64,000 bases of DNA from Candidatus Nomurabacteria bacterium (GTDB taxonomy: Bacteria > Patescibacteriota > Minisyncoccia > Phycocordibacterales > UBA9973). Shown here in pieces: positions 14,354-62,567 of the stretch (position 1 is the stretch's first letter; every line of letters starts with the position of its first letter). Below the pieces are notes generated by a model. The model made no database searches. It had not been told where the DNA came from and saw only the letters and a list, made by a program, of their open reading frames with translations. The DNA lies in NCBI GenBank assembly GCA_026395965.1, contig JAPLXS010000004.1, positions 686-64,685 on the forward strand, given 5' to 3'. Made by a program: the position numbers and the translations under genes.

Positions 14354-14929
14354 ATGACCAATAAATTTACAAAAAAAAATAGTGGATTTACTTTAGTAGA
14401 AGCGATGGTTGCAGTTCTTATACTGACTCTAACCGTAGCTAGTCTTATGACTGTTGTTGCAAATAGTTTATTTACTGCTAGATATGCTAGTGATGATATA
14501 ACCGCTAGTTATCTCATGCAGGAAGCTGTAGACTATATAAGAAATGATCGTGATTCAAGTATTTTCTTGCAAAATTCTACTTGGGATGAATTCAAACATA
14601 AATATGATAATTGTTTACCTGAAGTAAATGGGTGTTATCTTGATGTAGTAAATAAAGAAGGAACTGAGCCATTGCCTGCACCATATTTTGTTAGTACTCA
14701 TTATTTGTATTATGATGACCATGCCGAGACTACTCCATATTATGTTACTGATACAGGACCTGATTCTATATCAGGTATGCTCAAAACTAGTTTTCAAAGA
14801 AAAATAGTTGTAACTAATATGCCAGAAACACCAGATGAGATGGATATAGCAGTTACAGTTACATGGCTAAATGGTGGTTCAGTCAAAACAAGAACTCTCA
14901 CGTCTACTCTGACAAATTGGCAACAATAA
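14354..14929 (+). CDS. minor pilin (PilV/FimT-like)
   Basis: NSGFTLVEAMVAVLILT prepilin N-terminus. Confidence 0.7.
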   Translation: MTNKFTKKNSGFTLVEAMVAVLILTLTVASLMTVVANSLFTARYASDDITASYLMQEAVDYIRNDRDSSIFLQNSTWDEFKHKYDNCLPEVNGCYLDVVNKEGTEPLPAPYFVSTHYLYYDDHAETTPYYVTDTGPDSISGMLKTSFQRKIVVTNMPETPDEMDIAVTVTWLNGGSVKTRTLTSTLTNWQQ

Positions 14930-14977
14930 TTTGTGAGATAAGATTTATTGCAGATTCGTTTCAATTGTTCATAAAAT

Positions 14978-15547
14978 ATGAAAAAAAATATTATACAAAA
15001 AAATATAAAAAACATTAAAATAAGTGCATCGAGATTTTTTTCTAGTTTAATAACTAAAAAACAAAATGGATATGCAATTTTATTTACTGTTGTTATAGTT
15101 AGTGCTATTGCTGTAATCAGCGCAGGTCTCTCTAGTACAGCATACAAACAGCTGATTCTTTCTTCTCTTGCAAAAGATTCTCAGACTGCATTTTACCAAG
15201 CAGATTCTGCTGATGATTGTGCTTTGTATGCAGACAGAGTGGAGAGAGCTATCACTCCAACAAATCTTTTCACAGTAGGAGGAGGTGCTTTTGCTTGCGG
15301 TAATCAAAACTCAATCTTAACTGCAGGTGGAAGTGAAGGAGATGAATTCGGAAATACTTTTACTACAGACACAATATACCCATCAGATGAAACATCTCTA
15401 AGTCCTTGTTTTAGAATAGAAATATCTAAAACTACAAACCCGGTAGGTTTAATTAAAACAAAAATATCGTCAAAGGGTTATAATCTTTGTGACAAAAACA
15501 ACATAAGAACAGTAGAGCGTGAGATTGTAGTTAATTTTGAAGAGTAA
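14978..15547 (+). CDS. PilX-like pilus-associated protein
   Basis: Hydrophobic N-terminal helix NGYAILFTVVIVSAIAV without a canonical G-F cleavage site; synteny. Confidence 0.45.
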   Translation: MKKNIIQKNIKNIKISASRFFSSLITKKQNGYAILFTVVIVSAIAVISAGLSSTAYKQLILSSLAKDSQTAFYQADSADDCALYADRVERAITPTNLFTVGGGAFACGNQNSILTAGGSEGDEFGNTFTTDTIYPSDETSLSPCFRIEISKTTNPVGLIKTKISSKGYNLCDKNNIRTVEREIVVNFEE

Positions 15548-17711
15548 TACCATGAAAGACCAAGATGCTAAAAACCGAATACAAAAACTTCGGGAAGAAA
15601 TTTCTCGTTTAAGATTCCTTTATCATGTAGAAGATTCTCCAGATGTTACAGATGATGTCTATGATTCTCTAAATAATGAGCTTAAATCTCTATTAGAAAA
15701 GTATCCTGAATATGTAGATATAAATGCTCCAGAAAACAGAGTAGGAGGTAAACCTCTCGACAAATTTACAAAAGTTAAACATGAGATAAGAATGCTTTCC
15801 ATGAATGATGTTTTTTCATTTCCTGAAGTATTAGAATGGGAAAATAGAATTTCTAAAATTACAAACAAAAAACACTCATATTTTTGTGAATTAAAGTTAG
15901 ATGGATTGTCCGCCTCTCTTATATATAAAGATGGATTATTTGTAGAAGGTTCTACTCGCGGGGATGGTTGGATAGGTGAAGACGTAACAGAAAATCTAAA
16001 AATGATAGATACTATTCCACTTCAACTTGAGGCTCCATATCCACCTTACTTAGAGATACGTGGGGAAGTGGTAATGCAAAAGAAGGTTTGGTTGTCTTTA
16101 AATAAAATACAAGAAAAGGAAGGCAAGCAACCTTTTGCAAATACCAGAAACGCAGCAGCAGGTAGCTTGCGACAGCTCGACCCAAAGATTGCAAGACAAA
16201 GAAAGCTTGATTTTTTTGCATGGGATTTAACTCAATTTAAAAATATAAATGAAGAATTACGAATTAAAAATCACTCTGAAAAACATGACTTACTGAGAAA
16301 ACTTGGATTTAAGGTTCCTCCTTATGAAAAAAAAGCAGAAACACCTGAGCAGGTTTTTGCATTTATTGAAGAGGTTGAAAAAATACGTCAAAACTTGCCT
16401 TATGGTACAGATGGTATTGTTGTATCCATAGACGAGCTTGAATTACAAGAAAATCTAGGAGTTGTAGGAAAAGCACCACGTTATATGGTTGCATATAAAT
16501 ACCAAGCAGAGCGTGCCACAACTATACTCAAAGACATTACGGTCAACGTAGGACGCACAGGAGTACTTACACCTGTAGCACATTTCAACCCAACACTCGT
16601 AGCCGGTTCTACTGTTTCAAAAGCTACACTTCACAATATAGACCAGATAAATAGACTCGATATTCGTATTGGTGATACTGTTGTAATACAAAAAGCAGGA
16701 GATGTGATACCTGAAGTAGTAGAAGTTCTTTCCAATATGAGAACAGGTAAAGAAAAGAAATTTAAAATGCCAGAAAATTGCCCTGTGTGCGAATCAAAAG
16801 TTGAACAGAGGCAAGCTGGGGTTATAGGAAATTATATAAGCAAGGCCGGAATCAAACAAAGCTCCTCTTCGCAAATGAATTTAACCCCCCGACTAAGAAA
16901 AAGTTCTATGAGTAATGGTCTGGCACCTCTCCTCCCTCGTCCGAGGACCTTACAAAGAGAAGCTTTTTCTGAATCGGGGGGAATTTCCGTTGCTTTTTAC
17001 TGCACCAATAAAAATTGTCCTGCACGCAGCAGAAGAGGCCTACAGCACTTTGTAAACATTTTTGAAATCTACGAGATAGGTCCTAGGATTCTAGATAGAT
17101 TAAAAGACGAAGGTTTGGTAAGTGACGGGGCAGACCTATTTACACTTGAGAAAGCAGATTTATCAGGACTTGAGCGCTTTGGAGAAAAGTCAGCAGATAA
17201 TATTATTTCCTCAATACAATTACACAAAAAGATTTCTCTTTGGAGATTTATATATTCTCTGGGAATAATTCACGTAGGAGAGCAGACAGCTCGCGACCTA
17301 GCTGATCATTTTGGAAAATTAGAAAAAATAATATCCTCTAGTGTTGATGAAATAAATTCAATCGCAAATATTGGACCAGTAGTGTCACAAAGTGTTTATG
17401 AGTATTTCCACGATAAAACAAATATTCATTTTATAGAAAAACTTATAGACAACGGAGTCTCTATTTATCACGAGAAAGTAAAGAGTTTAAAACTTTCTGG
17501 TAAGACTTTTGTCCTTACAGGTACTCTATCTACTATGTCTCGCAATGATGCAAAGAAAAAGATTATTGATATGGGTGGAAGTGTAGCCTCTTCTGTATCT
17601 TCAAATACTAGTTATGTTATAAAAGGAGATAAGCCAGGAAGCAAGTACGATGAAGCCCTAGCTTTAGGAGTAAAAGTTCTAACTGAAAATGAGTTTTTAA
17701 AAATAATCTAG
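15537..17711 (+). CDS. ligA: NAD-dependent DNA ligase LigA
   Basis: Adenylation domain, OB fold, Zn finger CPVC...CTNKNC, HhH and C-terminal BRCT; carries an in-frame insertion in the Zn finger. Confidence 0.9.
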   Translation: MKSNTMKDQDAKNRIQKLREEISRLRFLYHVEDSPDVTDDVYDSLNNELKSLLEKYPEYVDINAPENRVGGKPLDKFTKVKHEIRMLSMNDVFSFPEVLEWENRISKITNKKHSYFCELKLDGLSASLIYKDGLFVEGSTRGDGWIGEDVTENLKMIDTIPLQLEAPYPPYLEIRGEVVMQKKVWLSLNKIQEKEGKQPFANTRNAAAGSLRQLDPKIARQRKLDFFAWDLTQFKNINEELRIKNHSEKHDLLRKLGFKVPPYEKKAETPEQVFAFIEEVEKIRQNLPYGTDGIVVSIDELELQENLGVVGKAPRYMVAYKYQAERATTILKDITVNVGRTGVLTPVAHFNPTLVAGSTVSKATLHNIDQINRLDIRIGDTVVIQKAGDVIPEVVEVLSNMRTGKEKKFKMPENCPVCESKVEQRQAGVIGNYISKAGIKQSSSSQMNLTPRLRKSSMSNGLAPLLPRPRTLQREAFSESGGISVAFYCTNKNCPARSRRGLQHFVNIFEIYEIGPRILDRLKDEGLVSDGADLFTLEKADLSGLERFGEKSADNIISSIQLHKKISLWRFIYSLGIIHVGEQTARDLADHFGKLEKIISSSVDEINSIANIGPVVSQSVYEYFHDKTNIHFIEKLIDNGVSIYHEKVKSLKLSGKTFVLTGTLSTMSRNDAKKKIIDMGGSVASSVSSNTSYVIKGDKPGSKYDEALALGVKVLTENEFLKII
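16881..16985. repeat. GC-rich imperfect palindromic insertion inside the ligA coding sequence
   Basis: ccccccga at 16885-16892 pairs with tcgggggg at 16974-16981; the roughly 30-bp arms are mutual reverse complements at about 75%; local GC about 50% against about 32% genome. Confidence 0.5.
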
Positions 17712-38223: not shown

Positions 38224-38565
38224 ACCTAATGATGTCAGAGAAAAGGTCTTCTGCTAAGCTATCGCTTGTTGGCAACTTGTTGGTAACTTCCTCTGATATT
38301 TTAAGCTATTGCGATAGAATGGGCTTTGAATAATATGGTCGAAGTGATATTATTTAATTACAACTAAATATATAAAGTAAGTAGCCTAAACCTTTGGTAA
38401 CAAAGGCATGGTGAATAAGAGCGGATAAAGCATAAAGAACTCCTAGTCAGAGCTCGGCTTTATCCGCCCATACTTGGAAACGAGTATGTGTAGCTGAAAA
38501 GCTACAAGCTGGCTGGGAGCTTTTTGCGTCTTAGCCAGATTTATAACAAAACGCAAAAAATAACT
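38224..38565. promoter_or_regulatory. unusually long hairpin-rich non-coding region adjacent to the serine recombinase (candidate att/junction or structured leader)
   Basis: 300 bp non-coding in a compact genome; stems gcggataaagc/gctttatccgc, catact/agtatg, ctggct/agccag, cctttg/caaagg; 11-bp direct repeat cttgttggYaa. Confidence 0.3.
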
Positions 38566-48115: not shown

Positions 48116-48147
48116 TCCGTATAGACGTCCAACATCTATGGCTATAG

Positions 48148-49161
48148 GTGTTGGACGTCTATATTTTTGATATAATGATTTATATGAAAAATAATGAAAA
48201 TATGTTTAGTTGGGAAGCTTTGGTTCGTATAGTAACTATGGGAATTATAATTTTTCTTTGTTGGCGTGCATTGTCGGTGATTCCTGTTATTATTGTCGCA
48301 TCTGTTTTGGTTGTTTCTTTTTACCCCGCTGTAAAGAAGTTACAAAAAACAATAAAAATACCGCTTGTAATGAGTATTTTTTTGATTTTGATTGTTCCGA
48401 TTATTCCTTTTATTTATTTTGGATATATTTTCATTCCTCGTATAGTGGCTGAAATGCCCAACTTGTTGTCCAGTATCAACTTAGTTGTAAGTAATTCACC
48501 ATATTTACATAATTTGAATATTGTTAGTTATCTTCAATCTCATTTTGATTATACTTCTGCAACTATAGATATTACATTGCTTGTTTTCTCTATTATTTCT
48601 ACTTTAGTTTTAGCATTCTTTTTAATGTACGATTTTGAAAGATTGTCAGCATTATTTTTAAGTCTTATTCCTGGAAAAGAAAAGAATGAAATGAAGGAAT
48701 TGTTTAAAGAAGTTTCACTTGTGACTGGTAGATATATACGTGGAAACCTTCTTATATCTCTTATCTGTGGTGTTGTTGTTTATATCGGACTTTATTTTTT
48801 GCATATACCTTTTGCTTTACCTCTTGCTGTATTTGCTGCAGTTTTTGATTTACTTCCACTTGTTGGGCAAACTGTAGGATCTATACCTGCTATTATTATT
48901 GGTTTTGGAGTATCACCATTTACAGGAGCTCTTGTAATAGTATTACATCTTATATACCAGCAAATTGAAAATGATATTATTTCACCTGTGATTTACAATA
49001 AGGCTTTAAATCTTTTTCCTTCTATTATTTTCTTGTCAGTATTGATAGGAGCAAGTCTTTTTGGAGTTCTTGGAGCATTTCTATCTCTTCCTGTTGCAGC
49101 AAGCATACCAGCAATTATTAACTATCGTAAGAATTACAAGATTAGATATTCTGTAGAATAG
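48148..49161 (+). CDS. AI-2E family transporter (PerM/UPF0118)
   Basis: Eight TM segments with conserved LPLVGQTVGSIPAIIIGF block. Confidence 0.75.
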   Translation: MLDVYIFDIMIYMKNNENMFSWEALVRIVTMGIIIFLCWRALSVIPVIIVASVLVVSFYPAVKKLQKTIKIPLVMSIFLILIVPIIPFIYFGYIFIPRIVAEMPNLLSSINLVVSNSPYLHNLNIVSYLQSHFDYTSATIDITLLVFSIISTLVLAFFLMYDFERLSALFLSLIPGKEKNEMKELFKEVSLVTGRYIRGNLLISLICGVVVYIGLYFLHIPFALPLAVFAAVFDLLPLVGQTVGSIPAIIIGFGVSPFTGALVIVLHLIYQQIENDIISPVIYNKALNLFPSIIFLSVLIGASLFGVLGAFLSLPVAASIPAIINYRKNYKIRYSVE

Positions 49162-60931: not shown

Positions 60932-60951
60932 TTTTAGACTAAGAACATTTT

Positions 60952-60984
60952 AGGGGTCCAACCCCTAACAGGGGTTGGACCCCT
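60952..60984. repeat. GC-rich perfect palindrome (cruciform-capable)
   Basis: aggggtccaacccct aac aggggttggacccct; each arm is itself an internal hairpin. Confidence 0.5.
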
Positions 60985-61044
60985 AAACTACTAATTATAA
61001 AATCCTTTCAATTTAACTCAAAATAAGGTAGAGTAAGGACCTAT

Positions 61045-62519: not shown

Positions 62520-62567
62520 AAAAAACTACTACAAACTCTGCCATGGCAGAGTTTGTAGTAGTTTTTG
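62520..62567. terminator. bidirectional terminator
   Basis: aaaaaactactacaaactctgccatggcagagtttgtagtagtttttg. Confidence 0.7.

Follow-up and report, generated by a model that had tools for sequence, protein, structure and literature searches.

How does the reading frame of a housekeeping ligase come to contain a GC-rich palindrome, and why is the palindrome kept? The question is raised by ligA (15537–17711, plus strand), which encodes a 724-residue NAD-dependent DNA ligase in a 64,000-nucleotide stretch of contig JAPLXS010000004.1 from a Candidatus Nomurabacteria bacterium, referred to here as the window. An initial annotation, made from the DNA letters, had noticed an in-frame insertion of about 50 codons within the zinc finger of this enzyme. 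The insert is probably an in-frame copy of a dispersed palindromic repeat, a tolerated 'protein-coding palindrome' that is analogous but not homologous to the Rickettsia palindromic elements (RPEs). It would consist of a full copy (16885–16981) and an adjoining arm remnant (16858–16874) of a family of GC-rich palindromes of approximately 100 nucleotides, which is dispersed in AT-rich genomes of Paceibacteria and Nomurabacteria from the Candidate Phyla Radiation (CPR).

A GC-rich hairpin splits the zinc finger of LigA

The window protein contains all Pfam domains of LigA, including the adenylation, OB, HhH, and BRCT domains, and the four cysteines of a C4 zinc finger. Its alignment to Escherichia coli LigA (2owo, E = 8e-150) spans residues 13–427 and 489–723, with 61 query residues placed opposite five. 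The first cysteine pair (C415 and C418 in the motif CPVC; 16779–16790, plus strand) aligns to C408 and C411 of E. coli, and the second pair is formed by C489 and C494 in CTNKNC (17001–17018, plus strand); all four are invariant across 120 relatives. The Pfam zinc-finger model PF03119 covers only residues 485–496, the second half of the finger, with a score below the cut-off. The cysteine pairs are separated by 70 residues, compared to 14 in E. coli and 12–21 in insert-free close relatives. The finger is therefore split, as had been described, but the gap is longer than the approximately 64 residues given at the time. Gap analysis against six insert-free proteins (P0023, P0030, P0080, P0010, P0026, and P0034; alignment A1) identifies 49–58 extra residues, located at approximately 428–480 and encoded by a segment at 16818–16976 (plus strand), which agrees with the expected number of codons. 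The frame is open throughout the insert, which encodes a peptide with many S, G, L, R, and P residues, close to the S/R/P-rich loop initially reported. A protein search with the 43-residue insert peptide returned no match, since the word index requires three shared 5-mers. A protein from a Candidatus Nomurabacteria metagenome-assembled genome (MAG) at NCBI is 100% identical to the window LigA, the exact sequence of which is known from one assembly only (P0001, one contig).

The 97 nucleotides at 16885–16981 (plus strand) fold as a single interrupted hairpin of approximately 31 pairs with a free energy of −39.7 kcal/mol. Shuffled sequences reach −26.4 ± 3.4 kcal/mol (z = −3.9), and none of 200 is equally stable. 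The ends of the hairpin, bounded by ccccccga and tcgggggg as recognized from the outset, form 19-nucleotide arms (16885–16903 and 16963–16981; CCCCCCGAnTnAGAAAAAG) that are 89% complementary; the arm pattern is found twice in the window, whereas 0.1 occurrences are expected. The fold comprises an outer helix (16885–16892/16974–16981), a 3 × 3 internal loop CTA/GAA (16893–16895/16971–16973), a middle helix (16896–16907/16958–16970), and an inner helix (16912–16915/16950–16953), followed by the conserved apical core GGTCTGGCACCTCTCCTCCCTCGTCCGAGGACC (16917–16949), which encodes GLAPLLPRPRT; all of these positions refer to the plus strand. The GC content is 51.5% in the hairpin and 45% in the region of residues 427–484, in comparison to 35% in the remaining part of ligA and 32% in the window, and the insert is thus GC-rich, as was first pointed out.

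The partial arm copy AAAGCTCCTCTTCGCAA (16858–16874, plus strand) is the reverse complement of the right arm of the family. Not noticed in the initial annotation, it is included in the inverted repeat I1, which pairs 16846–16874 with 16950–16978, and provides an alternative pairing partner for the right arm. It matches the left arm of reverse-oriented LigA inserts of the 'KQSSSSQGPR...' type, and its sequence points to a remnant of a second, oppositely oriented element.

In an AlphaFold2 model of the window LigA, based on a 120-sequence alignment, the mean predicted local distance difference test (pLDDT) score is 78. Residues 427–484 have pLDDT values of 23–28 and are without secondary structure; they connect strand 421–426 to strand 485–489, which is placed against it. 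According to the model, the insert is a disordered loop that extends from the tip of a zinc-finger hairpin of normal structure in other respects; this prediction is consistent with a tolerated passenger.

The repeat is dispersed in genomes of Paceibacteria

The scan pattern CCTCNNCCTCCCTCNTCCGAGGAC, derived from relatives of the window core, was compared to one genome per species from 185,579 species. It has 109 exact matches in 105 sequence stretches from 44 genomes, with 1–11 copies per genome, and all the carriers are MAGs of the Paceibacteria/Nomurabacteria type. The dispersed core has the sequence GGTCTGGCnCCTC..CCTCCCTCrTCCGAGGACC and the long form GGTCTGGCnCCTCGTCCTCCCTCrTCCGAGGACC. The window core differs from the scan pattern by a one-nucleotide deletion, and the same variant is found in the metagenomic loci L004, L186, L023, and L045. 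The core pattern has no match in the viral contigs of IMG/VR, and thus nothing points to a phage vector. The initial annotation proposed the insert to be the tolerated footprint of a mobile element similar to miniature transposable elements with inverted repeats (MITEs) or repetitive extragenic palindromes (REPs); the presence of the same apical hairpin in multiple copies in the 44 genomes, both between genes and in frame within them, supports this proposal well.

The consensus of 50 copies is approximately 100 nucleotides long, (A)CGAAGC-AGAAAAGTTCTTTTT..GAtGGTCTGGCnCCTCGTCCTCCCTCrTCCGAGGACCt..AAAAAGAAC...GCGAAGt, and the window copy aligns to it, together with the 49 others, along its entire length. 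The window copy belongs to the 'TCCTATGAGCAATGG / CCTTGCGAAGAGGAGC' subfamily, other members of which are located in DNA polymerase I (Pol I), in other LigAs, and at one intergenic site. A covariance model matches the window at 16875–16988 with a score of 71 bits, the window sequence having belonged to the seed alignment. In 908 kb of LigA loci, the model identifies eight copies at the zinc-finger site and one intergenic copy.

Sixty of the 109 copies (55%) are positioned in frame inside open reading frames of at least 200 residues, which represent approximately 17 housekeeping gene families. Host genes confirmed by Pfam encode CCA-adding enzyme, TruB, Tgt, UvrC, TsaD, RNase HII, UvrB, MnmA, Dus, and an S-adenosylmethionine (SAM) methyltransferase; inspection by eye added UvrA, Pol I, LeuRS, M1 aminopeptidase, NRAMP, and LigA. 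Five of the six possible frames are represented among the genic copies of the core, and a single DNA sequence thus specifies five different peptides: SGSSSSLIRGP, GLAPRPPSSED, GPRTREDEGPD, RSSDEGGRGARP, and VLGRGRTRGQT. The core is antisense in 45 genic copies and forward in 15.

The remaining 49 copies are non-genic. The intergenic form is approximately 85 nucleotides long, is composed of an A-run, the hairpin, and a T-run, and is nearly identical across genomes; examples are L086 2001–2114 and L114 6862–6975. A T-run is present in 39 of the 49 non-genic copies but in only two of the 60 genic ones. Among the 38 non-genic copies in L081–L160, 34 have a gene on both sides; 32 of these are located between co-directional genes, with the core always antisense. 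The intergenic copies fill the spacer, ending 0–20 nucleotides from both reading frames. Most of them look like terminators, and no convincing −35/−10 spacing of a promoter inside the element was found by eye or by scan. By contrast, the window copy is not an intrinsic terminator at the end of a transcription unit: the hairpin is directly followed by AATTTCC inside ligA, and a terminator scan detects only a weak 6-bp site at 16975–16989.

Copies of the repeat are not flanked by a consistent direct repeat of the kind associated with MITEs. The pentamer CGAAG, which recurs near both ends, was considered as a target-site duplication and rejected, since it is internal to the fold, where the 3 × 3 loop is followed by a covarying basal helix.

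One loop of LigA is occupied by many hairpins

The 120 closest LigA proteins are 65–81% identical to that of the window and 662–730 residues long, and their variation in length is located in the zinc-finger loop. From 80 metagenomic LigA loci that were fetched, the zinc-finger site can be delimited in 76. An insert is present in 52 of them, with 42–89 residues from the first to the last cysteine, and absent from 24, with 24–33 residues; the reading frame is kept in all 52. Their 46 distinct DNA sequences have a median fold z of −5.1, with 87% below −2, and form 17 BLAST clusters. A single protein loop is thus occupied by many hairpins of unrelated sequence. LigAs that are 78–81% identical to that of the window have an insert of another family, an insert in the opposite orientation, or none at all. 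The alignment of relatives, which had been suggested as a check, thus reveals that the presence, family, and orientation of the insert vary among close relatives, instead of one non-palindromic loop common to all of them, as expected of a lineage-specific feature.

The family of the window, defined at this site by GGTCTGGC...CCGAGGACC, is in the forward orientation in eight loci (L003, L004, L012, L023, L027, L031, L032, and L073), reversed in more than ten (L005, L014, L020, L021, L024, L045, L080, and others), and, in L033, both reversed and in a second frame. The recurrent but mutually unrelated peptide types SPMSNGLAPLLPRPRT, SSSSQGPRTREERGQTIAHRT, and KALSRKVLGRGRTRGQT are explained by the presence of the same family in differing orientations and frames. 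The composite insert of the window, including the arm remnant, the full copy, and the identical core, is also present in L004, obtained from JGI, and in L186 and L187, obtained from two SRA runs, and related inserts are found in dozens of metagenomes.

Loci L188 and L050 differ in the presence of 123 nucleotides (41 codons) of another hairpin family, flanked by the 7-nucleotide direct repeat CTCTTCG, which is equally compatible with deletion. Approximately 108 nucleotides around this indel are 94% identical, whereas the flanking 400 nucleotides are only 72–77% identical; the high local identity could be due to recombination or conversion, or to constraint on remnants of the element. In comparison to the empty site of L044, L031 has an insert of 90 nucleotides, in which the 17 nucleotides immediately upstream recur as their reverse complement. 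Arm remnants persist at several 'empty' sites (L039 and L188), and therefore differences at the site may stem from insertion or from deletion. Inverted duplication of the host flank, which would make the outer stems specific to each locus, fits the pair L031/L044 and, in part, the pair L050/L188; the idea was set aside as a general account because the alignment of 50 copies shows descent of the outer stems from a family consensus, and it survives only as part of the actively maintained module considered below.

A second hot spot of in-frame hairpins is located in the adenylation domain of LigA, directly after the sequence LDFFAYDIAE, and contains the same hairpin families (L051 10727–10749, L079 10753–10803, L060 10702–10718, L080 6312–6353, L065 3212–3253, L066 10498–10534, L075 3290–3315, L071 1278–1306, and L057 1863–1889). 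The window LigA has no insert at this position. Other hairpin families, unrelated in sequence to that of the window (GGTAGAGGTTAAACCTCTACC; GAGGTCGGACCTC...), recur at both LigA sites and between genes (L010 11222–11362; L080 6312–6353; L065 3212–3253; L066/L067; L075 1131–1182, 1810–1861, and 3290–3315), which suggests that several palindromic repeat families co-exist in these bacteria. A few intergenic hairpin copies are present in the flanks of LigA loci. The motif GGTCACAAGTATTTTTCTGCTGAAAAATCTCGCGACC is common to L052 16455–16480 and L021 15825–15850, two unrelated loci outside LigA, and matches the loop of the L054 LigA insert over 19 nucleotides; it is possibly another small repeat or an RNA motif.

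The arms of the hairpin co-evolve

In the LigA/PolA subfamily, compensatory changes affect 18 of 30 pairs. Complementary bases occupy 95.6% of the cells of paired positions, compared to 80% after shuffling and 30–58% with slid partners, and none of 500 shuffles reaches the observed value. Orthologous copies have compensatory changes in 11 of 30 pairs in RNase HII and in 12 of 32 pairs in Tgt, with almost no broken pairs. The covariation in these two genes extends to a 5-bp basal helix beyond a conserved 3 × 3 internal loop, G[AGU]A/G[AU]A, the position of which is occupied by CUA/GAA in the window. The element of the window is 79% identical to that of L004, and the flanking parts of ligA are 74–76% identical; since the two loci have the same composite insert, it was inherited. 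All 16 differences within their stems belong to eight compensatory pairs, as counted by hand. The elements of L004 and L186 are 96% identical, whereas their gene flanks are 68% and 85% identical.

In genic copies, the frequency of G·U pairs is similar whether the sense or the antisense strand is considered. There is therefore no indication of selection for pairing in the mRNA in particular, and the result fits maintenance at the level of DNA. The possibility, raised at the beginning, that a structured RNA is embedded in the coding sequence retains some probability because of the strong covariation, but the wobble pairs show no bias toward the mRNA strand. Correction of one arm by the other, through template switching or conversion, is a known way of keeping palindromes perfect (PMC6649704), and it would yield the same covariation without any function.

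Comparison to known palindromic elements

The title of a 2002 article by Ogata et al. in Genome Res reportedly refers to in-frame repeats of Rickettsia as 'unique but recurrent'. RPEs are dispersed palindromes of approximately 100–150 bp in the small AT-rich genome of a host-dependent bacterium. Many of their copies are positioned in frame in unrelated housekeeping genes, to which they add a peptide compatible with the fold, and others are intergenic. The CPR repeat resembles them in these features, with 109 copies of approximately 100 nucleotides, 60 of them genic and in frame, and with in-frame inserts at 52 of 76 LigA sites. Insertion of RPEs preserves the reading frame of the unrelated metabolic genes that receive them (PMC10969869; Ogata et al. 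in Science, 2000, and in Genome Res, 2002, cited in PMC6649704). Every one of their families specifies a single conserved peptide (PMC10969869), and their repeat identity is reported to be lost over time (PMC6649704). By contrast, the CPR core uses five frames, instead of a single one, and both orientations, its arms stay complementary and its apical part is nearly invariant, and the LigA zinc-finger loop is hit by many hairpin families. The carriers are Paceibacteria and not Rickettsia, from which the genome scan returned no match, a comparison that did not include direct alignment to the consensus sequences of RPE-1 to RPE-10. On these grounds, the CPR repeat appears to be of independent origin and not a member of the RPE family.

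REPs and bacterial interspersed mosaic elements (REP/BIME), which are associated with RAYT transposases, and the pneumococcal SPRITE (PMC10969869) are likewise short, imperfect, multi-copy intergenic palindromes that combine a hairpin with a T-run, similar to rho-independent terminators. However, REPs are extragenic by definition, whereas 55% of the exact-core copies in CPR genomes are genic, and the copy number of the CPR repeat is low (1–11 exact cores per genome). MITEs such as Correia, ERIC, and BOX are also small, hairpin-forming, and seemingly non-autonomous, and some of them make in-frame fusions (PMC10969869). The CPR element as a whole is one hairpin, in which no terminal inverted repeats matching a known insertion sequence (IS) could be defined. 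A further known system has long near-perfect inverted repeats in translated genes that are actively kept perfect, and template switching or arm conversion has been proposed for them; however, both of their arms encode conserved parts of the protein and they do not form a dispersed family, whereas here a shared repeat is inserted into a loop. The GC-rich palindromic clusters of yeast mitochondria, which are optional, polymorphic, and mobile in an AT-rich genome and are tolerated in frame in var1, offer a further lead, although they belong to an organelle system and are unrelated in sequence. No description of such repeats in CPR bacteria, Patescibacteria, Parcubacteria, or Nomurabacteria was found in the open-access literature.

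Origin and maintenance of the insert

If the insert is a tolerated repeat copy, as appears probable, it would do nothing for LigA and would be either selfish or neutral. Copies of the family would land, or be copied, at many places in the genome, and it is probably this mobility that has dispersed them. In essential genes, the surviving copies would be those that have a length divisible by three, lack stop codons, and are positioned in permissive loops, the zinc-finger loop of LigA being a hot spot of this kind. The copy in the window is presumably read through as approximately 50 extra residues between the cysteine pairs, and the formation of a disordered loop at the tip of the zinc-finger β-hairpin may spare the function of the ligase, to which the insert would be harmless. 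After insertion, the arms would continue to co-evolve and the hairpin would stay complementary, maintained through either correction or selection; the more plausible cause of the covariation is correction between the arms, as a result of template switching or gene conversion.

Several observations weigh against this explanation. The copy in ligA is the sole family member that the covariance model built from 50 copies detects in the 64-kb window, other matches (E ≥ 0.13) being generic AT-rich intergenic hairpins, although the family is otherwise multi-copy. No terminal inverted repeat related to an IS with a target-site duplication, nor another signature of mobility, was identified. No transposase turned up either, but the open reading frames of the window were not screened for transposases and no RAYT- or IS200-like search was made. 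The core is almost invariant across species with LigAs that are only 65–75% identical, and the hairpins are maintained instead of decaying, which fits a functional element better than junk. The copies also have an orientation bias, with 32 of 34 intergenic copies and genic copies in a ratio of 45:15 pointing in the same direction, which suggests a strand-specific function or mechanism of insertion.

These observations lead to a different explanation, according to which the hairpin is a functional nucleic-acid module, selected as RNA or single-stranded DNA for protein binding, processing, pausing, or termination, with its coding capacity as a side effect. Intergenic copies would then be terminators and genic copies would be regulatory sites in the mRNAs of housekeeping genes. 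The very strong covariation of orthologous copies, a core that hardly varies among 44 genomes although five frames are used to read it, and the conserved 3 × 3 loop followed by a covarying basal helix are as expected of such a module, and so are the T-run and nearly uniform orientation of intergenic copies between co-directional genes. The scarcity of T-runs in genic copies would be expected if premature termination is selected against. However, close relatives have no insert or unrelated hairpins at the site, and ligA can therefore do without the element. Both orientations are represented among the genic copies, the mRNA strand has no excess of wobble pairs, and arm-to-arm conversion can produce covariation without function (PMC6649704). 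Rfam has no match at E ≤ 10 in the window at 16700–17100, none for the element at the gathering thresholds in a scan of the window, and none at E ≤ 1 at the element in eight carrier loci, including group I and II introns and ribozymes. A functional module in this general sense is unlikely. Somewhat less doubtful, yet still clearly less probable than a tolerated passenger, is an actively maintained module with an invariant apical hairpin, a G-A-rich 3 × 3 loop, and covarying helices, to which a dedicated CPR protein would bind in the form of single-stranded DNA or RNA. Between genes, the module would act as a terminator, and it would have colonized loops of at least 17 housekeeping enzymes, either regulating them or persisting through strand-specific hairpin-templated copying that also makes an inverted duplicate of the neighboring host sequence. 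What keeps a functional reading, or one with a new mechanism, in contention is a core that hardly varies between species, together with the bias in orientation and the conservation of the internal loop. If the module exists, it would found a new class of mobile structured elements; it would also be the second case of 'protein-coding palindromes', independent of the first and distinct in mechanism, and would shape the evolution of CPR proteins.

Three other explanations are contradicted by direct tests. An ordinary lineage-specific loop, selected as protein and palindromic by coincidence, would account for an in-frame, stop-free insert in a surface loop and for the long loops of many relatives at this position. 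However, the same DNA encodes unrelated peptides in both orientations and several frames and is also present between genes and in approximately 17 unrelated proteins, the compensatory substitutions act on nucleotides while the peptide changes freely, and AlphaFold shows no structure; such a loop is very improbable. It is just as improbable that the insert is excised, as a mini-intron, an intervening sequence that is cut by RNase III and religated, or an intein-like peptide. Insertions in rRNA genes are a known feature of CPR bacteria, and a long perfect hairpin is a good substrate of RNase III, but the 52 LigA inserts and 60 genic copies all keep the frame and avoid stops, a constraint that an element removed from the RNA would not need to obey. 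There is also no match to group I or II introns or ribozymes, and approximately 50 residues of low complexity contain no intein domains. The least probable explanation, with hardly any likelihood left to it, is an artefact of assembly. Chimeric reads can produce palindromes and the exact window sequence comes from one assembly, but the composite insert with its identical core was recovered from independent samples by independent assemblers, and the frame is kept in all the related inserts, so that the misassembly about which the initial annotation had been cautious is unlikely.

Other features of the window

The neighboring genes, encoding type IV pilin-like proteins, gatC, and gatA, and the low GC content of the window match a CPR genome. 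Two open reading frames located 5' of ligA (14354–15547) carry N-terminal signals similar to those of type IV pilins, such as 'GFTLVEAMVAV', and the gene order pilin–ligA–gatC–gatA recurs in relatives (PF07963 is found upstream of P0085). A full-length match to the LOOT RNA (RF03000) is positioned at 38383–38506 on the plus strand, with 77.8 bits against a gathering score of 46.4.

The gene for tRNA-Gln (27997–28068) is immediately followed by a direct duplication of its last approximately 15 nucleotides (TCCAGGTCTGGCAGC TCCAGGTCTGGCAGCC), extending to 28090, an arrangement that resembles an integration (att) scar. The duplicate has GGTCTGGCA in common with the repeat core, a 9-mer that may be shared by chance. 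A perfect 29-bp inverted repeat with a 4-nucleotide loop at 21279–21340 overlaps the end of the tRNA-Asp gene (21331–21405, minus strand) and forms the most stable 100-nucleotide fold in the window (−69.8 kcal/mol). Intergenic palindromes that are perfect or nearly so, with 18–23 bp per arm, for example TTTAGGGGTCCAACCCCT / AGGGGTTGGACCCCTAAA, are located at 48120–48163, 60949–60987, and 62521–62566; they are terminator-like, and the covariance-model search places them outside the ligA repeat family.

Implications for genomes of CPR bacteria

Inserts such as that in LigA split domain models, as is the case for PF03119 here, and risk being read as misassemblies or novel domains in the annotation of CPR genomes. 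Palindromes in frame in essential genes have so far been known mainly from Rickettsia, and an unrelated family in CPR bacteria behaves in the same way. This analogy suggests that the phenomenon is a general outcome of the biology of tiny, AT-rich genomes of host-dependent bacteria. The CPR family is unusually informative: one core is read in five frames, compensatory evolution takes place within coding sequences, intergenic copies are strictly oriented, and a single loop is hit repeatedly. It makes testable the questions of how hairpins spread, whether they are kept up by template switching or by selection, and what amount of disordered sequence proteins receive from them.

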